DNA from: Actinomycetota bacterium
Lineage (GTDB): Bacteria > Actinomycetota > Acidimicrobiia > IMCC26256 > JACDBD01
Length of the DNA stretch: 64,000 nt
Direction of reading: 5' to 3'
NCBI GenBank assembly: GCA_046724655.1
Contig: JBKOWY010000018.1
Location: forward strand, 8,863 to 72,862
Every line of letters begins with the position of its first letter. Positions within the stretch are counted from its first letter, which is position 1. Below the pieces are notes generated by a model. The model was not told the origin of the DNA. It saw only the letters and a list, made by a program, of their open reading frames with translations, and did no database searches. The position numbers and the translations under genes are program-made. Positions 10,399-40,665 of the stretch are shown one piece after another.

Positions 10399-11001
10399 TC
10401 AGCCGTCGGGCGCCAACCGTGGCGCCCACGACGGGCGCCGCGCCTCGTGCGTCGCGATCTCCTCCTCGTGCTGCAACGTGCTCCCGATGTCGTCGAGCCC
10501 GTGCACGAGCCGGTGCTGCGTGTGATCGTCGAGCTCGAACGGCTCGTCGAGGTCGATGGCGGGCACCGCAACGCGACGGTCGACGACGTCGATGACGATC
10601 TCGACCGTGGGATCGTCCTCGACCGCCTGCATGATGCGCGTCACGACGTCCTGCGGCAGCTCGACGGGCACGAGGCCGATCTTGAAGCAGTTGTTGCGGA
10701 AGATGTCGGCGAAGCGAGGAGAGATCACGGCGCGGAAGCCGTAGTCCTCGAGCGCCCACACCGCGTGCTCCCGTGACGAGCCCGTACCGAAGTTGGCGCC
10801 CGCGACGAGGATCTGCGCGTCGCGGTACCGGTCCTGGTTGAGGACGAAGTCCGACCGCTCGCGCCACTCGGCGAAGAGCCCGTCACCGAAGCCGGTGCGC
10901 TCGACCCGCTTGAGCCAATCGCTCGGGATGATCTGGTCGGTGTCGACGTCGCTGCGTGGGAGCGGGACGGCGCGGGCGACGATCTCCTGCACCGCCTGCA
11001 T
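10399..11001 (-). CDS. leuD: 3-isopropylmalate dehydratase small subunit
   Basis: The 200-aa protein reads MQAVQEIV...VDTDQIIP...GANFGTGSSREHA. Its ATG overlaps the leuC stop (ATGA). Confidence 0.95.
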   Translation of the reverse strand: MQAVQEIVARAVPLPRSDVDTDQIIPSDWLKRVERTGFGDGLFAEWRERSDFVLNQDRYRDAQILVAGANFGTGSSREHAVWALEDYGFRAVISPRFADIFRNNCFKIGLVPVELPQDVVTRIMQAVEDDPTVEIVIDVVDRRVAVPAIDLDEPFELDDHTQHRLVHGLDDIGSTLQHEEEIATHEARRPSWAPRLAPDG

Positions 11002-12404
11002 CAGCCCAGGTCCTCGGGGGTCGTGAAGCGGCCCGCGACGGCGGTGGCCGCGGCCACGGCCGGGGAGACGAGGTGCGTCCGGCCGCCCTTGCCCTGACGT
11101 CCTTCGAAGTTGCGGTTGGACGTCGAAGCGCACCGCTCGCCGGGCGACAGCTTGTCGGGGTTCATGGCCAGGCACATCGAGCAGCCCGCTTCGTCGCGCC
11201 AGTCGAATCCGGCCTCGACGAACACCCGGTCCAGGCCCTCGGCTTCGGCCGCCGACTTGACCGCCATGGACCCCGGCACGACCAGCGCCCGCAGCCCGTC
11301 GCGCACCCGCCGGCCACGCACGACGTCCGCCGCAGCCCGCAGGTCTTCGACGCGCGAGTTCGTGCACGACCCGATGAACACCGTGTCGACCTCGATGTCG
11401 CGCAAAGGCGTCCCCGCCTTCAGGCCCATGTAGCCGAGCGCACGACGCGCGGACTCGCGCTGGGCCGCTTCCGCGAACGAGTCGGGGTCGGGGACGACGT
11501 CGTCGATCGTCACCGTTTGGCTCGGGTTCGTGCCCCAGCTGACGGACGGTCGGATCTCGGCCGCGTCGAGGACGACCTCCTTGTCGAAGGTGGCGTCGGC
11601 ATCGGTCGGGAGCGCGCGCCAGTTGTCGACGGCACGCTCCCAGTCCTTGCCCGTCGGCGCGAAACGACGGCCCTCGAGGTAGGCGAACGTCGTGTCGTCG
11701 GGCGCGACCATGCCCGCGCGCGCTCCCGCCTCGATCGACATGTTGCAAACCGTCATCCGCCCCTCCATCGACAGCGAGCGGATGGCCGAGCCCCGGTACT
11801 CGATGATCGAACCGATGCCGCCACCGGTCCCGATGCGGGCGATGATCGACAGGACGATGTCCTTCGGCGTCACGCCGGCCGGGAGCGCGCCGTCGACCGT
11901 GACTGCCATCGTGCCCGGCTTCGCCTGCGGGAACGTCTGCGTCGCCAGCACGTGCTCGACCTCGCTCGTGCCGATCCCGACCGCGAGCGCGCCGAACGCC
12001 CCGTGGGTGGATGTGTGGCTGTCGCCGCAGACGATCATCAGCCCGGGCTGGGTGAGGCCCTGCTCGGGGCCGATCACGTGCACGATGCCGCGGCCGGGGT
12101 CACCCATCCCGTACATCTGGATGCCGAACTGCTCGCAGTTGCGGGCCAGGACCTCCATCTGCTTGGCCGAGATCGGGTCCTCGACCGGGCGGGCGCGGCT
12201 GGTGGTCGGGTTGTTGTGGTCGATCGTCGACACGGTCAGGTCGGGCCGGCGCACCGTGCGACCGTGCAGGCGCAGCCCGTCGAAGGCCTGCGGGGACGTC
12301 ACCTCGTGCACGAGATGGAGGTCCACGTAGAGCAGGTCGGGCTCGCCTTCGGCCCGGTGCACGACGTGCCGCTCCCACACCTTCTCGGACAGCGCCTGAC
12401 CCAT
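11001..12404 (-). CDS. leuC: 3-isopropylmalate dehydratase large subunit
   Basis: Matching segments are [39 protein letters not shown] and GSCTNSR. The start is taken at ATG 12404; an upstream in-frame GTG is less likely. Confidence 0.92.
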
Positions 12405-12417
12405 CTCGAACAGCGTA

Positions 12418-12435
12418 TTGGCCGACGTCGGCCAA
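12418..12435. promoter_or_regulatory. perfect 18-bp palindrome TTGGCCGACGTCGGCCAA abutting the putative leuC -10
   Basis: Read directly from the sequence. On the minus strand it is followed by TACGCT (12417-12412) and 7 nt later by the leuC ATG. Confidence 0.4.
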
Positions 12436-12443
12436 CAAACACC

Positions 12444-12487
12444 GTTCACCACGGCGAAACAGTCGCGAAACACAGCCCCCTTACGGT
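12444..12487 (+). promoter_or_regulatory. GlnR-box-like site plus -10 (TACGGT) of the wHTH/antiporter operon
   Basis: GTTCAC-n6-GAAAC-n6-GAAAC (12444-12471) is followed by GCCCCCTTACGGT, and the hexamer ends 6 nt before ATG 12494. It is nearly identical in layout to 38455-38498 upstream of amt. Confidence 0.45.
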
Positions 12488-12493
12488 CCCCGC

Positions 12494-12997
12494 ATGGACG
12501 TTGTCCTGGTCCGGTGGCCCGAGGAGGACGCCCGGCTCCGGGAGCTCCGAGCGACCGGTGCGCCGCGGTTGTTGCTCCTGAACGGTGAATCGGCGCCACC
12601 CGAGCGGGCGGACTGCCTCGAGGATTGGATCCGGCTGCCCGCCGACGACCGCGACGTGCGAGCCCGGGTCGCGATCTTGTCGTCACGCGCCGAGACCGAC
12701 CATCCTGCGCCGCGGGTCGACGACGACGGGTTGCTGCGTCACCGACAGCGCTGGGTCGCGTTGTCACCGGTGGAAGCGGCGCTCGCGGTCACGCTGGTCG
12801 ATCGCTTCGGCGCCGTCGTGGGCCGAGACACGTTGGCCCGACGGGCATGGCCGGACGGCGTCCCGACCCGCAACGCCCTCGACGTGCACGTGCTGCGCCT
12901 GCGACGCCGCATTGCGCCGCTCGGGCTCGAGATCCGCACCGTCCGCTCCCGCGGGTATCTGATGCAGGCGGCGCAGCCGACGGCCGACGTCCGGTAA
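12494..12997 (+). CDS. OmpR/PhoB-type winged-helix transcriptional regulator with truncated, probably non-phosphorylatable receiver remnant
   Basis: The C-terminus [68 protein letters not shown] is a trans_reg_C-type wHTH. The N-terminal part is only about 70 aa. Confidence 0.8.
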
Positions 12998-13009: not shown

Positions 13010-15715
13010 ATGTCGGTCACGAGCGTTCTCCTCGACATCCTGATCGTCCTCGTCGCGGCCAAGGTGGCGGCGGAGGTGGCCGAGCGCGTCGGCTTCCCGC
13101 CCGTCGTCGCCGAGATCCTCGCCGGCGTGGCGATCGGTCCGTCGGCGCTCGACCTCGTCGGCACTGAGCAGACGTTGCGCGTCCTCGGCGAGATCGGCGT
13201 CATCCTCTTGCTGCTGCAAGTCGGCATGGAGATGGACCTGGCCGAACTCGGAGCGGTCGGGCGCGCGTCGGTGATGGTCGCGGTGGTGGGCGTCGCCGTG
13301 CCGATGGCGGCCGGGTTCGGCGTGTCCGAGATATTCGGCTACGACGCGAAGACGGCGCTGTTTCTCGGTGCCGCGCTCGCCGCCACGAGCGTGGGGATCA
13401 CGGCGCGAGTGTTCAGCGACTTGCGCGCGCTCGCCAGTGTCGAGGCGAGGACCGTGCTCGGCGCGGCGGTCGCCGACGACGTCCTCGGCCTCGTGATCCT
13501 CACGGTCGTCGTACGGATCGTGTCCGAGGGCAGCGTGTCGCTGCTGAGCGTGCTCGGCATCGTCGCGATCGCCGCTGCCTTCCTCGTCGCTACCACTGCC
13601 GTGGGCGCCCGCGCTGCGCCGCCGCTGTTCCAGTTCCTGCACCGGTACGCGCGCTCCACGGGGACCGTGGTCGCGCTCGCACTTGCATTCACGCTCGCGT
13701 TCGCCGAGCTTGCCGATGCTGCGCAGCTGGCGCCCATCGTCGGCGCATTCGTGGCCGGGCTCTCGCTGTCACGCAGTGCGGTCTCTGACCGCATCACCCG
13801 CGAGCTCGCGCCCGTCGGTCACCTCTTCATCCCGGTGTTCTTCCTCCAGATCGGTATCGACGCCAAGGTCGAGGCCTTCTTCGACCCGACGGTCCTGGGT
13901 ATCGGCGCCGCCCTGCTCGCGGTCGCGGTCGCCGGAAAGCTCGTCGCCGCCATCGGCGCCGCCGGGTCGCCGGGCGACAAGCGCCTCATCGGCTTGGGCA
14001 TGCTCCCGCGGGGCGAGGTGGGGCTGATCTTCGCGACGATCGGGCTGCGCGAGGCGATCCTCGACCAAGACCAGTACGCCGCTCTGCTGCTGGTCGTGCT
14101 GGCCACCACGCTGCTCGCGCCGCCACTGCTGCGCTGGCGGCTCGAGCAACTGCGGGCCGGACGGGCGGCGCGGCGGCATCCGAGCGCGGCGCCGCCCCAC
14201 GGGCGCTGGCTGGTGACGCATGACGGTGTCGTCGATGTCGCCGGCGCGCCGCCCGAGGGTCTTGCCTTGTCGCTCGCGCTCGAAGCGGCGCAGGCGATCA
14301 GCCGGGGCGGTGTTCGTCCCGGCCAGGCGCTTCTCGATTACCTCGGCGATCTCGGTGACACTCCAATGCGGTGGGAACGTGATGCATCACGCCGGCTGTT
14401 CGAGATCCTCCGCACGGGTGACGCGCGGACGTGGCGGTTCCTGGAGACGACGGGGGTGCTCGAGCGCGCCCTACCCGAACTTGCGGAAGCCGTGCGCCGT
14501 CGCCGAGCCGATCCGTTCGTCGTGGACCCGTCGCATGTGCTGCGGTTCTCGCTCGTCGAGGCGATCCGGGAGCTCGTCGAGACCGATGAGCGCGCTGCCG
14601 CCGAGTACGCGCGTCTCGAGCATCCCGAGTGGTTGCTGCTCGCGGCCTTGATTCTCGACACCGCCGGCGAGGACGCGTCCCCCGTTGATCTCGCTCGTCG
14701 GCTGGCGCGGCGCCTCGACCTGGGCGCGACGGCCGAGCAGGAGATCGCGCTCCTCGTCGGCGACTCGAGCCTGTTACGGGCTGCCGCCCAACGCGTGGAC
14801 GGCTTCGACGAGGAGCGCGTGTTCGCACTCGCCACCCACATCGACCGTCCCGAGCGCGCCCGCGCCCTGTATGTCCTCACGCTCGCCCTTGGTGGCCTCG
14901 AGCCGTGGGACCGCACCCGTCTCGACGAGCTGCACGATGTCGTGCTGGCCGTGCTCGAGCAGCCCGATCTCACGGGGCTCGACGCCCGCAATCTCGTCGA
15001 ACGGCGGCGCGCCGAAGCGTTGCGCATGGCCGACAGCAATCGCGCCGTAGCGGAACGCATCGCGGCCGCCCCGCGCACGTACCTGTTGGCTCAGGAAGCT
15101 CCCGACGTCGCGCGGCAGGCCGCGCTCCTCGAGCCGCTCTTGCTGCGCAATAGCGCGCGCGTCGCGGTTGCGCCGCTCGACCAAGGACATTGGAGGATCG
15201 AGGTCGCGTCCCGTGATCGACCGGCGCTGCTTGCGACCGTGTCCGGAGCCCTCGCCGAGTCAGGGCTCAGTGTCGAGAGCGCGGTCGTGGCCACTTGGGA
15301 CGACGGCGCCGCGCTGGAGTCGTTTCGCGTCGTGCCCACCGCCGGGCCACTACCTGACGCCGACGCGCTAACCGCGGCGATCACGGAGGCATTCAGCCGG
15401 GCCCTCGAGGCTCCGCCCATTCCCGATGCCCAGGTCACCTTCGACGACGATGGCTCGCCCTGGTACACGCTGGGCGAGGTGCGCGCGGCGGACCGCCCCG
15501 GCCTGCTGCACGCGATGACGGTCGGGTTCGCAAGCGCGAACGTCGACGTGCACTCGGCGCGGGTGGAGACCGTCGAAGGCGTCGCCGTCGACCGCTTCGA
15601 GCTCACCGACCGCAACGGCCGAAAGCTCACCGAGGCCGCGAAGCAAGCTGTGCTGAGCGCGGTCACCGGTGGAGTCCGCTCCGGCCGCCGCGGCCGGCTG
15701 CTGCGCCGCCGCTGA
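13010..15715 (+). CDS. fusion protein: CPA2-type cation:proton antiporter (N) + GlnD-like degenerate HD region + two ACT domains (C)
   Basis: This is a 901-aa continuous ORF. Residues 1 to about 385 are multi-TM (MSVTSVLLDILIVLVAAKVAAEVAERVGFPPVVAEILAGVAIGPSALD...). The middle has TGVLERALPELAEAV, VVDPSHVLRFS and ALILDTAGED, which are GlnD-like but lack the HD signature. Two ACT-like segments follow: WRIEVASRDRPALLATVSGALAESGLSVESAVV and YTLGEVRAADRPGLLHAMTVGFASANVDVHSARVETV. Confidence 0.85.
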   Translation: MSVTSVLLDILIVLVAAKVAAEVAERVGFPPVVAEILAGVAIGPSALDLVGTEQTLRVLGEIGVILLLLQVGMEMDLAELGAVGRASVMVAVVGVAVPMAAGFGVSEIFGYDAKTALFLGAALAATSVGITARVFSDLRALASVEARTVLGAAVADDVLGLVILTVVVRIVSEGSVSLLSVLGIVAIAAAFLVATTAVGARAAPPLFQFLHRYARSTGTVVALALAFTLAFAELADAAQLAPIVGAFVAGLSLSRSAVSDRITRELAPVGHLFIPVFFLQIGIDAKVEAFFDPTVLGIGAALLAVAVAGKLVAAIGAAGSPGDKRLIGLGMLPRGEVGLIFATIGLREAILDQDQYAALLLVVLATTLLAPPLLRWRLEQLRAGRAARRHPSAAPPHGRWLVTHDGVVDVAGAPPEGLALSLALEAAQAISRGGVRPGQALLDYLGDLGDTPMRWERDASRRLFEILRTGDARTWRFLETTGVLERALPELAEAVRRRRADPFVVDPSHVLRFSLVEAIRELVETDERAAAEYARLEHPEWLLLAALILDTAGEDASPVDLARRLARRLDLGATAEQEIALLVGDSSLLRAAAQRVDGFDEERVFALATHIDRPERARALYVLTLALGGLEPWDRTRLDELHDVVLAVLEQPDLTGLDARNLVERRRAEALRMADSNRAVAERIAAAPRTYLLAQEAPDVARQAALLEPLLLRNSARVAVAPLDQGHWRIEVASRDRPALLATVSGALAESGLSVESAVVATWDDGAALESFRVVPTAGPLPDADALTAAITEAFSRALEAPPIPDAQVTFDDDGSPWYTLGEVRAADRPGLLHAMTVGFASANVDVHSARVETVEGVAVDRFELTDRNGRKLTEAAKQAVLSAVTGGVRSGRRGRLLRRR

Positions 15716-15745: not shown

Positions 15746-17539
15746 ATGCGGTTGGGCGTCGACACCGGCGGAACGTTCACCGACCTGGTCGCTGACGACG
15801 GGCGGGTCGTCAAGGTCCCCTCCACGCCGGACGACCCGACGCAGGCGCTGCGGGCCGCCCTTGACGGTGCCGGCGCCGGGCGCGACGCCGAGCTGCTCGC
15901 GCACGGCACCACCGTCGCCACGAACGCCCTGCTCCAAGGGAGCGGAGCGCGTGTTGCGCTCGTGACCACGAAGGGATTCGCGGACGTCATCGAGATCGCC
16001 CGCCAGGCTCGGCCGTCGCTGTACGACCCGATGGCCGACCGGCCGCCACCGCTCGTTCCCCGTGACCTGCGCCTCGAGGTCGAGGGACGGCTGGACGGAC
16101 GAGGTCGCGTGATCGAGCGGTTCGACGCGTCGCGTATGCCCGAGCTGCCGGCGGACGTCGACGCGGTGGCGGTGTGTTTACTGCACGCCGACCTCGACGC
16201 CGGCCACGAGCAGCAGGTCGCCAAGGAGGTCGTCGCGCGCGGCCTCGACGTGACGTGCTCGCACGAGGTGTCCCCCGAGTTCCGGGAGTACGAGCGGATC
16301 GTGACGACGGTCGCGAACGCGCTTCTGCGCCCGGTGTGCCGCGACTACCTCCGCGGCATCGACGGCATTGCCCGCGAGGTGCTGGTGATGACATCGGCGG
16401 GCGGGCTCGTGCCGGTTGCCGAGGCTGCGGAACGTCCCGCCGCGCTACTGCTCTCGGGGCCTGCCGGTGGCGTCCGCGCCGCCGCCGCGATCGCGGCGGC
16501 GTGCGGGTATCCCGACGCGGTGTCGTTCGACATGGGTGGGACGAGCACCGACGTGTGTCTCGTGCGCGGCGGCGTGCCCGAGCCCGCGCCGGCGAGGACG
16601 GTCGCCGGGTACCCGATCCGGCTCCCGGCCCTCGACATCCACACGATCGGCGCCGGCGGCGGATCGGTGGCGCGCCTCGACGCCGGCGGCGCGCTCGTGG
16701 TCGGTCCCGAGAGCGCCGGCGCGGTGCCGGGACCGGCGTGTTACGGGCGCGGCGGCGAACAGGCGACGGTGACCGACGCGGACCTCGTGCTCGGCCGCAT
16801 CCCGGCCGGCGCCACCTTCGCGGGACTGGGCCGCCTCGACGAGCAGGCCGCGCAGCGTGCGCTCGAACGTGCGCGGGTCGAGGCGGACGGTGTCGCCACC
16901 GTCGTCGACGCCGCAATGGAACGTGCCGTGCGCGTCGTGACCGTCGAGCGCGGTGTCGACGCGCGCGACCTCGCCTTGGTGGCGTTCGGCGGCGCCGGTC
17001 CGCTTCACGCCTGCGCGATCGCCGGCGCGCTCGGCATGCGCGCCGTCATCATCCCGCCGCGCGCCGGTGTGCTCTCGGCCGTGGGCCTCGTGTGCTCGCC
17101 CCGGGAGCGCGAGCTCGTGCGGTCGTGGCCGGAGCCACTGGAGCACGGCGGCATCGATCGCTCGCTCGACGCGCTGGCCGAGGAGGCGGCCGCGCTCGTG
17201 CTGCACGGCGATGACCCGGGTGACGTGGAAGTGGAACGCCTGGTGGACTGCCGGTACGCGGGGCAGAGCCACGAGCTCACGGTGACGGGCCCGGCTGCGT
17301 TTCCCGTCGAACACGAACGCCGCAACGGCTTCGCCCGGCCCGGCGCGCCGGTCGAGATCGTTGCGCTGCGCGTGCGGGCGCGACGGCCGGCGCCACTCAC
17401 GCCGGACGAGCTGCCGCCGATCGAGCGGCCGTCCCTGCGCGGGCCCGAGGTCGTGGCCGAGCCCGACTGCACGGTCTGGCTACCCGACGGCTGGCGCGCC
17501 GACCCGGGTCCACTCGGCGCGTGGGTGCTTCGGCAATGA
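15746..17539 (+). CDS. hydantoinase/oxoprolinase family protein, A subunit type
   Basis: MRLGVDTGGTFTDLV, HGTTVATNALL and FDMGGTSTDV are typical of HyuA/OplA-type proteins. Confidence 0.88.
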   Translation: MRLGVDTGGTFTDLVADDGRVVKVPSTPDDPTQALRAALDGAGAGRDAELLAHGTTVATNALLQGSGARVALVTTKGFADVIEIARQARPSLYDPMADRPPPLVPRDLRLEVEGRLDGRGRVIERFDASRMPELPADVDAVAVCLLHADLDAGHEQQVAKEVVARGLDVTCSHEVSPEFREYERIVTTVANALLRPVCRDYLRGIDGIAREVLVMTSAGGLVPVAEAAERPAALLLSGPAGGVRAAAAIAAACGYPDAVSFDMGGTSTDVCLVRGGVPEPAPARTVAGYPIRLPALDIHTIGAGGGSVARLDAGGALVVGPESAGAVPGPACYGRGGEQATVTDADLVLGRIPAGATFAGLGRLDEQAAQRALERARVEADGVATVVDAAMERAVRVVTVERGVDARDLALVAFGGAGPLHACAIAGALGMRAVIIPPRAGVLSAVGLVCSPRERELVRSWPEPLEHGGIDRSLDALAEEAAALVLHGDDPGDVEVERLVDCRYAGQSHELTVTGPAAFPVEHERRNGFARPGAPVEIVALRVRARRPAPLTPDELPPIERPSLRGPEVVAEPDCTVWLPDGWRADPGPLGAWVLRQ

Positions 17540-19092
17540 TGCTCGACCCGGCATCGCTCCAGGTGCTGATCGCGCGGCTCACCGGCATCGCCGACGAGAT
17601 GGGCGCGGTGCTGCGCCGCGCCGCGTACAGCCCCAACATCAAAGAGCGCGCCGACTGCTCGGCGGCGCTGTTCACGGCGGCCGGCGAGCTGCTCGTGCAG
17701 GCCGAGCACATCCCCGTGCATCTCGGGTCGATGCCGGCTTCGGTTCGCGCGGCCATCGATGCGTGCGGCGAGCGCCTTCGACCCGGCGACCAGGTGGTTC
17801 TCAACGACCCGTTCGCGGGCGGCACGCACCTCAACGACGTCACGCTGGTCGCCCCGTGCTTCGCCGGTCGTGACCTCGTCGGCTGGGTCGCCAACCGCGC
17901 CCACCACGCCGATCTCGGCGGGATGGCGCCGGGCTCCATGCCGCCCGAGGCGGTCGACATCCAGCAGGAGGGCCTGCGCGTCCCGCCCGTGCTGCTGACG
18001 CAGGACGTCGAAGCCGTCATCGTGACCAGCTCGCGCACACCGGACGAGCGACGCGGTGACCTGGACGCCCAGCGCGGCGCCAACCAGCTCGGCCTGGCGC
18101 GCCTCGCTGAGCTCGTGACCGAGCACGAGTCGGTGGCGGCGCTCGCCGAGGTCGTCGATTACGGCGAACGCCGGATGCGCGCCGCGCTCTCGGAGCTTCC
18201 TGACGGGCGATTCCGGTTCGAGGACGTGCTCGACTCCGCCGGCCCCCGTCCCGAGCAGCAGTCGCCGGCGCGGGTGGTCGTGACCCTCGCGATCGACGGG
18301 GAGCACGCGACGTTCGACTTCACCGGTACGGACGCGCAGCGCCCCGGCAACGTCAACGCCGTCGAGGCAGTGACCGTGAGCGCGGTGGCGTTCGCGTTGC
18401 GATCGGTCACCGACCCCACGATCCCTGCCAACGGCGGGACGATGCGACCCGTCACCGTCATCGCACCAGCAGGCACCGTGGTCGCCGCAACGCCGCCGGT
18501 TGCCGTCGGTGCGGGCAACGTCGAGGTCAGCCAGCGCGTCGCCGACGTGTGCCTCGGCGCGCTGGCGTCGGCTGCGCCCGGCCGGCTCGGCGCTGCCGGG
18601 CAGGGGACGATGAACAACGTGCTCGTCGGGGGCGACGGCTGGGTCTACTACGAGACCGTCGGCGGAGGGCAGGGAGGTCGCCCCGGCAAACCGGGCATGA
18701 GCGGCGTCCACACGGCCATGACCAACACACGCGACACACCGGTCGAGGCGCTCGAACGGGCGTTGCCGATTCGGGTTCGCCGGTACCGGCTGCGCGACGG
18801 TAGCGGCGGCGCCGGGGCGTCTGCCGGCGGCGACGGCATCGGGCGGGAGCTCGAATTGCTCGAGGCGGCCACGCTCTCGCTCGTCACCGAGCGGCGCGTG
18901 AGCCGGCCGTGGGGTCTCGCGGGCGGCGAGCCCGGCGCGCCGGGGGAGAACTGGCTGCTTCCCGACGGCGACGAGTCACAGGCGCGGCGGCTACCCGACA
19001 AGTGCACGGTGCAGCTGGCGGCCGGTGATGTCGTGCGCCTCCTCACCCCCGGCGGTGGTGGCTACGGCTCGACATCAATCAATCCGCGATGA
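17536..19092 (+). CDS. hydantoinase B/oxoprolinase family protein
   Basis: Matching segments are SPNIKERADCSAALF, HIPVHLGSM and NDPFAGGTHLNDV. The ATG overlaps the upstream stop (ATGA). The last codons (SINPR*) are contributed by the 65-bp repeat. Confidence 0.88.
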   Translation: MMLDPASLQVLIARLTGIADEMGAVLRRAAYSPNIKERADCSAALFTAAGELLVQAEHIPVHLGSMPASVRAAIDACGERLRPGDQVVLNDPFAGGTHLNDVTLVAPCFAGRDLVGWVANRAHHADLGGMAPGSMPPEAVDIQQEGLRVPPVLLTQDVEAVIVTSSRTPDERRGDLDAQRGANQLGLARLAELVTEHESVAALAEVVDYGERRMRAALSELPDGRFRFEDVLDSAGPRPEQQSPARVVVTLAIDGEHATFDFTGTDAQRPGNVNAVEAVTVSAVAFALRSVTDPTIPANGGTMRPVTVIAPAGTVVAATPPVAVGAGNVEVSQRVADVCLGALASAAPGRLGAAGQGTMNNVLVGGDGWVYYETVGGGQGGRPGKPGMSGVHTAMTNTRDTPVEALERALPIRVRRYRLRDGSGGAGASAGGDGIGRELELLEAATLSLVTERRVSRPWGLAGGEPGAPGENWLLPDGDESQARRLPDKCTVQLAAGDVVRLLTPGGGGYGSTSINPR

Positions 19093-28971: not shown

Positions 28972-29642
28972 GGATCAGCTGGCGCATCGTCCGACGGGTC
29001 GGGGTCGTCGTGGTCCTCGCCGCGCTGCTGTATTACGTCGTCACGTTCGTGCAGGTGTGGTGGGCAGCCCGTCACGACGACAGCCGCCGGTCGGAGGCGA
29101 TCGTCGTGCTCGGCGCCGCGCAGTTCAACGGCCGGCCGTCGGCCGTGTTCCGGGCGCGTCTCGACCACGCGGCCACCCTCTACAAGGAGCGCGTCGCCCC
29201 GACGATCGTGGTCACCGGGGGCAAGCAGACCGGCGATCAGTTCACAGAAGCGACGTCCGGCGCGAACTATCTCCACACCAACGGCGTGCCCGACGCCGCG
29301 ATCTTGCGCGAGACGACGAGCCGCACGTCGTGGGAGTCGCTCGCCGCCGCCGCCCGCGTGTTGCGGGACCGAGGTGAGAAGCAGGTCGTGCTCGTCTCCG
29401 ACCCGTTCCACGCGCTCCGCATCCGGTCGATCGCGAACGAGCTCGGCCTCGATGCGGTCACGTCGCCCACGCGGAGCAGCCCCATCTCCGGCTTCGAAGA
29501 GTGGCGCCGGTTCCTGAGCGAGGCGCTGCGGGTCGCCGTCGGGCGCATCGTCGGGTTCGGGCGTCTGGCGCGGGGCGCGAACAGGGTGGGGAGGCTCGTG
29601 CCGGGACTCGGTAGCATGGCTGTTCCTTCGGGGGTGGTGTAA
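28968..29642 (+). CDS. YdcF/ElyC (DUF218) family protein with N-terminal TM anchor
   Basis: The GTG overlaps the gltX stop (GTGA). Matching segments are AIVVLGAAQFNGRPSAVFRARLDHAATLYKERVAPTIVVTGG and VLVSDPFHALR. The 3' end overlaps tRNA-Gln by 15 nt. Confidence 0.8.
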   Translation: MRISWRIVRRVGVVVVLAALLYYVVTFVQVWWAARHDDSRRSEAIVVLGAAQFNGRPSAVFRARLDHAATLYKERVAPTIVVTGGKQTGDQFTEATSGANYLHTNGVPDAAILRETTSRTSWESLAAAARVLRDRGEKQVVLVSDPFHALRIRSIANELGLDAVTSPTRSSPISGFEEWRRFLSEALRVAVGRIVGFGRLARGANRVGRLVPGLGSMAVPSGVV

Positions 29643-29699
29643 TCGGCAACACAACAGGTTCTGGCCCTGTCGTTGGGGGTTCGAGTCCTCCCCCCCGAG
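29628..29699 (+). tRNA. tRNA-Gln (anticodon CTG)
   Basis: Hand-folded cloverleaf: acceptor TCGGGGG/CCCCCGA, D arm GTGT-AATCGGCA-ACAC, anticodon arm ACAGG-TTCTGGC-CCTGT, T arm GGGGG-TTCGAGT-CCTCC, discriminator G. CCA is not encoded. Confidence 0.9.
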
Positions 29700-29747: not shown

Positions 29748-29820
29748 GGCCCCGTCGTCTAGTGGCCTAGGACGCCGCCCTCTCAAGGCGGAAACGGCAG
29801 TTCGAATCTGCTCGGGGCTG
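29748..29820 (+). tRNA. tRNA-Glu (anticodon CTC)
   Basis: Hand-folded cloverleaf: acceptor GGCCCCG/CGGGGCT, D arm GTCT-AGTGGCCTA-GGAC, anticodon arm CCGCC-CTCTCAA-GGCGG, T arm GGCAG-TTCGAAT-CTGCT. Confidence 0.9.
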
Positions 29821-38420: not shown

Positions 38421-38440
38421 CCGTCAGAGTCCCGTCAGAG
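38421..38440. promoter_or_regulatory. direct repeat CCGTCAGAG x2 with 11-bp phasing in the GH38/amt divergent region
   Basis: The sequence is ccgtcagagtc ccgtcagagcc. Its function is unknown. Confidence 0.3.
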
Positions 38441-38454
38441 CCGTGTTTCGGTTC

Positions 38455-38498
38455 GTTCACGGATCGGCACCGGTCGCGAAACGTGCCCCCCTTACGTT
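38455..38498 (+). promoter_or_regulatory. GlnR-box-like site plus -10-like TACGTT upstream of amt
   Basis: GTTCAC-n6-GCACC-n6-GAAAC is followed by gtgCCCCCCTTACGTT, about 85 nt before the amt GTG. Confidence 0.5.
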
Positions 38499-38583
38499 CG
38501 CCTTACCTCGCGCAGAGGGGCTGGAACCACGCGAGGGGGAGGGCAACGGCGCCTTTTCGAGCATTCACGAGCAGGAGGACGAT

Positions 38584-40179
38584 GTGAAACGGAAATTGTT
38601 GGGCAAGGGCGCCGCGGTTGTGACCCTCGCCCTCGTACTGGTGGTCCTTGCCGGCACAGCGGCGTTCGGACAGGACCCGAAGCCGGTGTTCGACGGCAAG
38701 CTGATCCCGGCGCCGTCGGACGTCGGCGTGAGCTTGAACATTCTCTGGGTCGTCATCTCCGCGGTGCTCGTCATATTCATGCAGGCGGGCTTCGCGTTGG
38801 TCGAGACCGGTTTCACCAGGGCGAAGCACGCCGCTCACACGATGTCGATGAACTTCGCGATCTTCGGGTTGGGTTTCGTCGCGTTCTTCGTCGTGGGTTA
38901 TGCGTTCATGTTCGGCGGCTACACCGCCAGCGGAGTCATCCCGTTCGGCTACGACAAGGCGGTCGGTGACGCGCTCATCGGCTCGGGTGATTGGACGTTC
39001 CTGTGGCACGGAGGGTTCTTCCTCACCAACCTCCCGAGCCTTGCGTTGACGGCACCGGTGGCGGCGTTCTTCCTCTACATGGTGGCCTTCATGGACACCA
39101 CAGCCACCATCCCGACGGGAGCGATGGCCGAGCGGTGGCGGTGGAAGTCCTTCGTGGCGTGGGGCCTCTTCGTCGGATCGATCTACTACCCGCTGTTCGG
39201 CGCGTGGACCTGGGGCGGCGGCTGGCTGGCGAAGCTGGGCAACAGCCTGCATCTCGGATTCGGTTACGTGGACTTTGCCGGATCGGGCGTTGTCCACGCG
39301 ATGGGGGGCTTTGCCGGTCTGGCCGGCGCGCTCGTACTCGGTCCGCGGATCGGCAAGTACGGTCCGGACGGGAAGCCACGGACGTTGGCGGCGCACAGCA
39401 TCCCGATGGCGCTGCTCGGCACGTTCATCCTGCTCGTGGGCTGGTTCGGGTTCAACGCGGGTTCGACACTCGCTGCCACAGACGTTCGGTTCGCGGTCAT
39501 TGCGACGAACACCGCACTGGCGGCTGCGTTCGGTGCAACGGTTGCGATGTTCTACGCGATGCGGCGGCTCGGGAAGCCCGACCCGGGGATGATGGCGAAC
39601 GGCATGCTCGCCGGACTCGTGGCGATCACGGCGCCGTGTGCCTTCGTGCAGCCGTGGGCAGCAGCGGTGATCGGTGCCATTGCAGCTGTCATCGTCATCG
39701 AGTCGATTCTCTTCATCGAGCGCAAGGGCGTCGACGATCCGGTAGGCGCGATCTCGGTGCACGGTGTCTGCGGCATCTGGGGAGTGCTCTCGGTCGGTCT
39801 GTTCGCGAGTGGGCAGTACGGGACCGCGTGGAACGGCACGACTGAAGGCTCGGCGGCAGCCGCCAAGGGTGTGAGCGGGATCCTCTACGGCCTCGACCCT
39901 GGGCTCGGTCAGCTCGTGGCTCAGGCCGTCGGGGCGCTCGTCATCGTCTTCGTGATGGGCGGGATCGCCTACTTGTTCTTCAAGATCTGCAACGCGGTCA
40001 CGAAGGGCGGTATCCGGCCCGCCGAGGACGTCGAGCGCGCGGGAATCGACCGGGAGGAGATGGGCGTCATCGCCTACTCCGACCTCACCCTCAGCGAGCT
40101 GGTGCTCGCGGGCGAGGACCCGGCCGAGGACAGGGTGCTCGCGAGCACTCCGTCCCCCGACCCGACCATCGGTAGGTAA
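38584..40179 (+). CDS. amt: ammonium transporter (Amt family) with signal-like N-terminus and long C-terminal tail
   Basis: Matching segments are WVVISAVLVIFMQAGFALVETG, DFAGSGVVHAMGG and GWFGFNAGS. The start is GTG 38584, preceded by GCAGGAGG. Confidence 0.93.
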   Translation: MKRKLLGKGAAVVTLALVLVVLAGTAAFGQDPKPVFDGKLIPAPSDVGVSLNILWVVISAVLVIFMQAGFALVETGFTRAKHAAHTMSMNFAIFGLGFVAFFVVGYAFMFGGYTASGVIPFGYDKAVGDALIGSGDWTFLWHGGFFLTNLPSLALTAPVAAFFLYMVAFMDTTATIPTGAMAERWRWKSFVAWGLFVGSIYYPLFGAWTWGGGWLAKLGNSLHLGFGYVDFAGSGVVHAMGGFAGLAGALVLGPRIGKYGPDGKPRTLAAHSIPMALLGTFILLVGWFGFNAGSTLAATDVRFAVIATNTALAAAFGATVAMFYAMRRLGKPDPGMMANGMLAGLVAITAPCAFVQPWAAAVIGAIAAVIVIESILFIERKGVDDPVGAISVHGVCGIWGVLSVGLFASGQYGTAWNGTTEGSAAAAKGVSGILYGLDPGLGQLVAQAVGALVIVFVMGGIAYLFFKICNAVTKGGIRPAEDVERAGIDREEMGVIAYSDLTLSELVLAGEDPAEDRVLASTPSPDPTIGR

Positions 40180-40207
40180 CGAGGAGTTCCACGGCGGTTG
40201 CGCAAGT

Positions 40208-40235
40208 GGTCGGCGGGCGACGGGGCCCGCCGACC
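40208..40235 (+). terminator. 11-bp GC hairpin after amt (no T-run)
   Basis: GGTCGGCGGGC-gacggg-GCCCGCCGACC. Confidence 0.45.
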
Positions 40236-40278
40236 GCTTCGCCGTGTGTGTACGCGTTCGAGCGCGCATACTGGTGAT

Positions 40279-40665
40279 GTGGGCCCGAGCCGGTACGTCG
40301 GCCAAAGCGTGTTCCTGCGCTGCTGGCCCCCGGGCATGCTCGCCTTCGCACTCATTGTGCTGCTCGGTACCGGCCGAGGTGCGTTCTTCTACGGGGGGCT
40401 GTTCGCGCTCTGCGGCCTGGTGTCGGCCCGCTACCTGCCGTGGCGCTTCGCCGTCCTCGACGACGGCATCGCATTGTGGTTCCCCTTCGGGCGGCGCCTG
40501 TTCCTGCCCAAGGACGCCGTGACGGTGCGCGTGCGTTCGGGGAGCCCGGTCGCGTATCCGGAAGTCTTCCGCCGGTGGGGCTACCCGCTCACCGACGGCC
40601 TCGTGGAGCGGCGTCGCAAGCTGCTGGCCGCCGTGCTCGTGCAGCACGGTTTCCACGTAGCGTGA
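40279..40665 (+). CDS. hypothetical membrane protein
   Basis: High GC3, two hydrophobic helices (MLAFALIVLLGTG.., FFYGGLFALCGLV), then a soluble tail. The start, GTG 40279, is chosen downstream of the amt terminator hairpin. Confidence 0.55.
   Translation: MGPSRYVGQSVFLRCWPPGMLAFALIVLLGTGRGAFFYGGLFALCGLVSARYLPWRFAVLDDGIALWFPFGRRLFLPKDAVTVRVRSGSPVAYPEVFRRWGYPLTDGLVERRRKLLAAVLVQHGFHVA

Follow-up and report, generated by a model that had tools for sequence, protein, structure and literature searches.

In actinobacteria the nitrogen regulator GlnR binds 5-nucleotide (nt) sites of the types gTnAc (a) and GaAAC (b), which lie 6 nt apart and typically come in fours as a1-b1-a2-b2, giving two 22-bp boxes, and three of the four sites are sufficient (PMC10235972, PMC5826061). 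The amtB promoter of Streptomyces coelicolor carries three GlnR boxes including an atypical a2 site (PMC5826061), and in the cryo-electron microscopy structure of the GlnR activation complex the b2 site sits downstream of the -35 element, with the bound GlnR in contact with sigma region 4 and the beta flap (PMC10235972). In mycobacteria, GlnR has been documented to control its own gene through boxes in the promoter of that gene. Two promoters of closely similar layout are described here from a 64,000-nt stretch of DNA of an Actinomycetota bacterium of the class Acidimicrobiia (contig JBKOWY010000018.1), referred to as the window. One precedes the gene of a 167-amino-acid (aa) winged-helix protein and the other precedes amt, encoding an ammonium transporter. 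The module that they share recurs before nitrogen genes throughout Acidimicrobiia, and the 167-aa protein is the leading candidate for its reader.

Site A at 12444-12487 reads GTTCAC-CACGGC-GAAAC-AGTCGC-GAAAC-ACA-GCCCCCT-TACGGT and site B at 38455-38498 reads GTTCAC-GGATCG-GCACC-GGTCGC-GAAAC-GTG-CCCCCCT-TACGTT; all strings and coordinates given for them in the initial annotation proved correct when the letters were re-read. Common to both is the layout TTCAC-n6-G(A/C)A(A/C)C-n6-GAAAC, then 10 nt, then TACGnT. As in GlnR boxes, direct 5-nt sites of the gTnAc/GaAAC type are thus spaced 6 nt apart in both, and the promoter-proximal site is placed between -35 and -10, the last GAAAC ending 10 nt before TACGGT or TACGTT, so that the earlier term "GlnR-box-like" appears to be an accurate description of the architecture. 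Unlike the typical GlnR arrangement, the consensus of 104 related sites has no fourth upstream site and only three repeats are informative. A second likeness is to the pho box of Escherichia coli, in which direct repeats with an 11-bp period take the place of the -35 hexamer, the last of them ending some 10 bp upstream of the -10, and PhoB activates through head-to-tail winged helices. The 11-bp repeat period, the lack of a -35 hexamer and the last repeat about 10 bp upstream of the -10 are found here as well, but PhoB needs a phosphorylated complete receiver and its regulon is that of phosphate, not nitrogen. A classical sigma-70 promoter for the regulator gene was rejected, as no -35/-10 pair of that type was found within 12250-12650, and its absence fits dependence on an activator. 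The parts of the two promoters are the following.

12445..12449, plus strand: repeat 1 (TTCAC) of the putative activator box in the regulator promoter, invariant in orthologous promoters and high in information in the 104 sites, where its information content is not independent because the scan pattern fixed this column
12456..12460, plus strand: repeat 2 (GAAAC) of the regulator promoter, 6 nt after repeat 1; the free letters of GnAnC are mostly A in the 104 sites
12467..12471, plus strand: repeat 3 (GAAAC) of the regulator promoter, 10 nt upstream of the -10 hexamer, between -35 and -10
12482..12487, plus strand: -10 hexamer TACGGT (TANNNT type) of the regulator promoter, kept as TACnGT in orthologues
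38456..38482, plus strand: putative activator box of amt, with TTCAC at 38456-60, GCACC at 38467-71 and GAAAC at 38478-82, kept in 7 lineages of the amt subfamily
38493..38498, plus strand: -10 hexamer TACGTT of amt, 10 nt after the last repeat
38423..38449, plus strand: upstream of the amt box, three extra 5-mers in phase with it, namely GTCAG at 38423-27, GTCAG at 38434-38 and GTTTC at 38445-49

The middle repeat of the amt box, GCACC, is degenerate. The extra 5-mers continue the 11-nt phase of the three amt repeats exactly, making six phased sites, and are conserved in the amt-subfamily alignment and in loci L014, L078 and L128. The arrangement resembles the S. coelicolor amtB promoter in having both additional upstream boxes and an atypical inner site, and we infer that protein may bind at 38423-38449 also.

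The two sites are identical in 30 of 44 positions without gaps. Each is the best match of the other on both strands of the window, the runners-up reaching 26-27, and none of 200 dinucleotide-preserving shuffles attained 30 (shuffle maximum 28). Against a weight matrix made from the 104 related sites, sites A and B scored 54.4 and 38.8 bits, respectively, and the best shuffle 12.4. Neither the matrix nor a composite-pattern search gave any further site above background in the 64-kb window, and the composite pattern of repeats plus -10 occurred only at sites A and B within the window and about 80 kb of related loci.

The distribution of the module was investigated with the pattern TTCAC-N6-GNANC-N6-GAAAC-N10-TACNNT in 185,579 genomes, one per species. 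At least 120 loci were found. About 100 of the matches listed are from Acidimicrobiia, all of them with the repeat-to--10 spacing that the pattern fixes, and include bins of Acidimicrobiaceae, Iamiaceae, Microthrixaceae, Ilumatobacteraceae, Poriferisocius and Sva0996; the remaining listed matches are scattered over phyla as chance matches would be. The module stands before orthologues of the 167-aa regulator (45-94% identical) at no fewer than 58-62 loci and before amt homologues (30-86% identical) at no fewer than 28. Among the matches listed it also precedes genes for glutamine synthetase (L016, L046; the type II enzyme, GSII, in L040; the type III enzyme, GSIII, in two Coriobacteriia), PII (L094, L034, L095, L110), formamidase (L066), Bmp-type binding proteins (L022, L033) and a GntR regulator (L068), so that amt, glnA and PII are targets in common with GlnR. 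In the 104 sites the information is held by the 5-mers and almost none by the 6-nt spacers, and in the columns left free by the pattern most sites have the letters of GAAAC in the middle repeat. Conserved 5-mers between drifting spacers are the signature of a protein-binding site, not of shared descent. These comparisons make it well supported that the module would serve as a class-wide cis-element of an Acidimicrobiia nitrogen regulon comprising amt, PII, glnA, formamidase and the regulator operon. The initial annotation had placed both promoters in one nitrogen regulon and had proposed a motif scan for other nitrogen genes as a check; the scan was positive, the same module being present before glnA, PII, amt and formamidase genes across the class. 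The two Coriobacteriia matches, L038 4870-4912 in Thermophilibacter provencensis and L107 794-836 in Candidatus Olsenella pullicola, are each located 41 nt upstream of the GSIII gene, and in that class, which lies outside the range of the 167-aa family, the module may be a GlnR-type site.

The spacer between leuC and the regulator gene is 89 nt and has the same length in relatives whose regulators are 80-85% identical, and these also keep the block CCAACAAACACCGTTCACCnCnGCGAAACAGTCGCGAAACAC, the TACnGT hexamer and a TACSCT hexamer on the leuC side. The start codon ATG 12494 follows 6 nt downstream of TACGGT, a hexamer of the TANNNT type, leaving no room for a Shine-Dalgarno sequence, and in 43 of 56 orthologues the regulator open reading frame (ORF) starts 6-9 nt past a TACNNT hexamer. 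The same short distance is seen at other targets (L022, L033, L066, L068, L110). Actinobacterial -10 elements are of the TANNNT type and place +1 about 7 nt downstream, and leaderless mRNAs occur commonly, so the conserved distance supports a +1 at the A of ATG 12494. That the 12494 mRNA is leaderless, as had been suggested from this one promoter, is well supported by the predicted geometry. Site B differs in this respect, as amt starts at GTG 38584 behind AGGAGGA and has a leader of about 80 nt.

The 167-aa protein matches Pfam Trans_reg_C (PF00486) over residues 88-156 (E 1.8e-13), and no Response_reg match was found in the Pfam search. Its AlphaFold model (predicted local distance difference test score, pLDDT, 91.5) has an N-terminal domain built from three strands and two helices, with a winged helix after it. 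By the family profile, residues ~18-77 correspond to receiver residues ~65-130 alone (BasR, RegX3, RpaA, GlnR), that is to the half that follows the phospho-acceptor aspartate, all alignments beginning after the phospho-acceptor region. The protein has the C-terminal winged helix of its class and lacks a complete receiver with phospho-acceptor aspartate; the segment LEDWIRLPA looks like a receiver ADDYxxKPF segment from which the lysine has been lost. The gene is not a truncated one. The family is compact and consists of 140 clusters (50% identity, E <= 1e-30), nearly all of 160-200 aa and matching end to end. Those members that bear a taxon name (P0332, P0356) belong to Acidimicrobiia or Acidimicrobiales. 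One member, P0246 (392 aa), contains two complete regulator units in tandem (residues 30-179 and 225-382), a natural fusion that amounts to a covalent head-to-tail dimer; in P0241 (351 aa) the query was matched in two stretches.

The relation of the protein to GlnR was assessed by both profile and fold. With the family profile NsrR scored 73, BasR 56 and RegX3 52 bits, while the GlnR structures 8hig, 8hml and 8hih scored 41, 35 and 31, and the top Foldseek matches were all OmpR/PhoB regulators with GlnR ranking 46-48. On these rankings the protein was rejected as a GlnR orthologue and is, as judged from sequence and model, a distinct lineage of the OmpR family. It resembles the GlnR of Streptomyces, Mycobacterium, Amycolatopsis and Saccharopolyspora in being an OmpR/PhoB-type protein that would act without phosphorylation and, as is known in mycobacteria, on its own promoter, but at 167 aa it has half a receiver, whereas GlnR has a complete one and solved chains of about 255 aa. 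Helicobacter HP1043 (2hqr), which is among both the sequence and the fold matches, likewise joins an OmpR-type DNA-binding domain to a receiver-like domain that is not phosphorylated; its receiver fold is however of full size, and about half of that fold, including the phospho-acceptor strand, is absent in the 167-aa protein. NnaR, a HemD-fused co-activator of nitrate and nitrite genes in GlnR regulons, also combines an OmpR-type DNA-binding domain with the lack of a normal receiver and serves nitrogen genes, but has an N-terminal domain like uroporphyrinogen-III synthase and acts together with GlnR. The 167-aa protein shows a weak NCBIfam match to the DNA-binding end of the HemD-fusion model PRK07239 and has no HemD domain.

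The neighbours of the regulator gene are recurrent. The next gene in the same orientation encodes, in 16 of 62 loci, a CPA2 cation/proton antiporter fused to the C-terminal part of GlnD (CPA2::GlnD-C). The regulator orthologues of these 16 are 42-94% identical, and the recurrence shows that the fusion gene is not a lineage-specific insertion. In four of the 62 the co-oriented gene directly downstream is amt (L036, L089, L098, L108; for instance L089 4874-5344 and 5472-6887) and in another four it is PII (L053, L057, L064, L073). Other recurrent downstream neighbours encode a membrane Fe-S protein of about 740 aa (L013, L050, L088, L120) and a 253-aa protein without known family (L031, L059, L062, L097).

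The likeliest binder of the module is the 167-aa protein, acting in positive autoregulation, a reading that we consider rather probable on comparative grounds. Several facts point to it as the cognate factor: the promoter of its gene always carries the box and is the commonest and most conserved location of the module among the matches listed, the motif and the family share their taxonomic range, and genes for nitrogen sensors and transporters repeatedly stand just downstream of the regulator gene in the same orientation. The 44-bp block before ATG 12494 would then be an activator-dependent leaderless promoter with its start codon at the expected +1, built of three direct 5-bp repeats with an 11-bp period, the last ending 10 bp upstream of TACGGT, and devoid of a -35 hexamer. 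Several copies of the protein would bind head-to-tail on the repeats, which the tandem fusion P0246 fits, and the promoter-proximal copy would, like GlnR and PhoB, stand in for the -35 contact in recruiting RNA polymerase. The regulator would in this way activate its own gene as well as ammonium uptake, and the nitrogen signal would perhaps be relayed via the co-transcribed CPA2::GlnD-ACT protein or PII. A number of points weigh against the 167-aa protein as the reader. There is no obvious nitrogen-sensing route for a protein without a phospho-acceptor, and of the four base-contacting residues of Saccharopolyspora erythraea GlnR (R186, V190, R193, R194) about two are kept by a by-eye reading of the alignment. 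Three repeats are conserved here, compared with the typical four of GlnR, and conservation at the 17 positions fixed in the scan pattern is partly circular. A separate binder is also possible, since the absence of canonical GlnR was observed for the 8-kb blocks around the matches and not for whole Acidimicrobiia genomes.

That the two promoters resemble each other by chance, or through a core-promoter style with no regulator in common, is the least credible of the alternatives and is already contradicted by the comparative data. Part of the identity, namely the GTCGC spacer and the CCCCCT before the -10, does agree with it, being lineage-specific and outside the general motif, a correction to the initial annotation. 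The observed identity was however not reached in any shuffle, repeats are kept while spacers drift in about 100 loci of several families among the matches listed, and the genes served are functionally coherent. A common regulator granted, it could be a canonical full-length GlnR encoded elsewhere, with the 167-aa protein as one of its targets, as a downstream tier in a cascade or as an NnaR-like co-regulator. Sequence and spacing fit the published a/b sites, with the last site downstream of the -35; amt, glnA and PII are classic GlnR targets; and the module before the GSIII genes of Coriobacteriia (L038, L107) occurs beyond the range of the 167-aa family. We nevertheless regard this as unlikely. 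The initial annotation had looked to actinobacterial GlnR as the binder, which was not borne out: none was seen in the sequences examined, and the adjacent 167-aa protein is not its orthologue by sequence or fold. No classical GlnR-bearing genus is titled among the matches listed (at least 120), which are overwhelmingly from Acidimicrobiia, and a literature search found no paper linking GlnR to this class. Across the class, moreover, the module is most often at the promoter of the 167-aa gene itself. Location at the promoter of its own gene is the usual comparative-genomics signature of a cognate autoregulated factor.

Another full-length OmpR-family regulator, PhoP by way of GTTCACC or else MtrA, might also occupy the repeats, either by itself or competing with the 167-aa protein, and would tie nitrogen genes to signals of phosphate or growth. 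Competition of PhoP with GlnR at amtB and repression by MtrA at GlnR boxes are documented in Streptomyces. The first unit, GTTCACC, is PHO-like, resembling the Streptomyces consensus of the PHO-box repeat unit. A PHO box of at least two 11-nt GTTCACC-type units was however rejected, because only unit 1 (GTTCACCACGG) fits, units 2 and 3 being CGAAACA, and PhoP requires two or more units. The genes served are moreover related to nitrogen and not to phosphate. We judge occupation by either regulator to be distinctly improbable, and the 167-aa protein is retained as the preferred reader.

A wider proposal, which we advance tentatively and with somewhat less than even confidence, is that Acidimicrobiia replaced or never had the classical GlnR. 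Their master nitrogen regulator would then be an OmpR-type protein of 160-200 aa that keeps only the dimerising half of the receiver, activates its own leaderless gene as well as amt, PII and glnA via three direct repeats, and takes its signal from the co-transcribed CPA2::GlnD-ACT protein or PII and not from phosphorylation. Acidimicrobiia are abundant in soils, sludge, freshwater, ocean and sponges and almost none have been cultured. The literature search found nothing on nitrogen regulation in the class, and a paper on its molecular markers makes no mention of such a regulator. The GlnR-box-like element is probably read by a half-receiver OmpR-type regulator of a new kind, acting on its own gene. 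The results supply Acidimicrobiia with a class-wide cis-element and a short list of target genes, and with a candidate regulator of unusual build, in which an OmpR-type DNA-binding domain is carried on half a receiver. The operon partners CPA2::GlnD-ACT and PII provide a testable idea for nitrogen sensing by a non-phosphorylatable regulator, and the motif is ready for annotating nitrogen-responsive genes in Acidimicrobiia metagenome bins.

The window has a G+C content of 69.8% and the closest relatives of its proteins are from Acidimicrobiia metagenome bins. The genes at the two loci are the following.

11001-12404, minus strand: leuC (Pfam Aconitase, E 1e-178)
12494..12997, plus strand: gene of the 167-aa OmpR/PhoB-type winged-helix protein, putatively leaderless, the candidate cognate regulator (Pfam Trans_reg_C)
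13010..15715, plus strand: CPA2::GlnD-C fusion, 901 aa, second gene of the putative operon (Pfam Na_H_Exchanger over residues 16-376 and two ACT domains)
15746-17539, plus strand: hyuA, hydantoinase/oxoprolinase subunit (Pfam Hydantoinase_A, Hydant_A_N), distal gene of the putative operon
17521-19092, plus strand: hyuB, hydantoinase/oxoprolinase subunit, distal gene of the putative operon, taken from the ORF list
38584..40179, plus strand: amt, ammonium transporter of 531 aa with a GTG start (Pfam Ammonium_transp, E 3.7e-102; NCBIfam amt)

Gaps of 12 and 30 nt suggest that the regulator, the CPA2::GlnD fusion, hyuA and hyuB form a single operon, and in relatives hyuA-hyuB are found directly after the regulator gene. 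In the 901-aa protein the first 380 residues are the CPA2 antiporter and the last 450 match the C-terminal part of GlnD, including the two ACT domains (NCBIfam UTase_glnD, profile positions 369-844 of 850, E 6e-44). The antiporter is thus joined to the part of a nitrogen signalling enzyme that senses glutamine, a link to nitrogen beyond what the initial annotation saw, and the fusion may be a membrane-bound glutamine sensor. It is without the nucleotidyltransferase part of GlnD and no HD domain was detected in it by Pfam.

The amt gene is divergent from a GH38 mannosidase gene. It is not followed by PII or glnD here, compared with the amtB-glnK-glnD operon of S. coelicolor, and for the 155-aa ORF after it at 40198-40665 neither Pfam nor NCBIfam gave a match; in that place relatives carry an unannotated gene of 109-128 aa. 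The region upstream of amt is almost invariant in seven lineages with Amt proteins 71-86% identical, and this extends through the leader.

38499..38583, plus strand: conserved 5' leader of amt, with the hairpin CTCGCG...CGCGAG followed by GGGAGGGC...GCGCC and ending in the AGGAGGA ribosome-binding site

The leader, near-invariant in the seven lineages as CTACCTCGCGCAGAGGGGCTGGAACCACGCGAGGGGGAGGGCAACGGCGCC, has two predicted hairpins, and an insertion of about 35 nt in some relatives makes a third. A known RNA family was rejected, as Rfam gave no match at either the gathering or a permissive threshold, and RNAalifold found the hairpins but no compensatory changes. The leader is a candidate cis-regulatory RNA by its conservation, its RNA structure being unproven.

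On the other side of the 89-nt spacer, two features were considered.

12412..12417, minus strand: -10 hexamer TACGCT of leuC, 7 nt before the leuC ATG (12404), kept in relatives as TACCCT/TACGCT with the same spacing
12418..12435, no strand: perfect 18-nt palindrome TTGGCCGACGTCGGCCAA, not a conserved element

The leuC promoter is divergent and probably leaderless as well, and the spacer would hold two leaderless promoters back to back. The palindrome, earlier taken as a candidate operator for leuCD, was rejected in that role. None of the orthologous spacers examined contains the dyad, among them those of the same 89-nt length and those of L042, L071, L106, L114 and L124, and the spacers without it still have the box and the two -10 hexamers. 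In its place relatives have TTGGGGGAAGGGCACCAA or TTGGGGGATGCCGGCCAA, and other variants are found elsewhere. Perfect palindromes of at least 18 nt are near their chance frequency in the window, where four were found against 1.4 expected from shuffles. The conserved flanks (TATTGG, CAACAAAC) are better explained by the -10 hexamer and the -35 region of leuC. Elsewhere in the window, the only Rfam matches at the gathering threshold are two tRNA genes on the plus strand, at 29628-29699 and 29748-29820.

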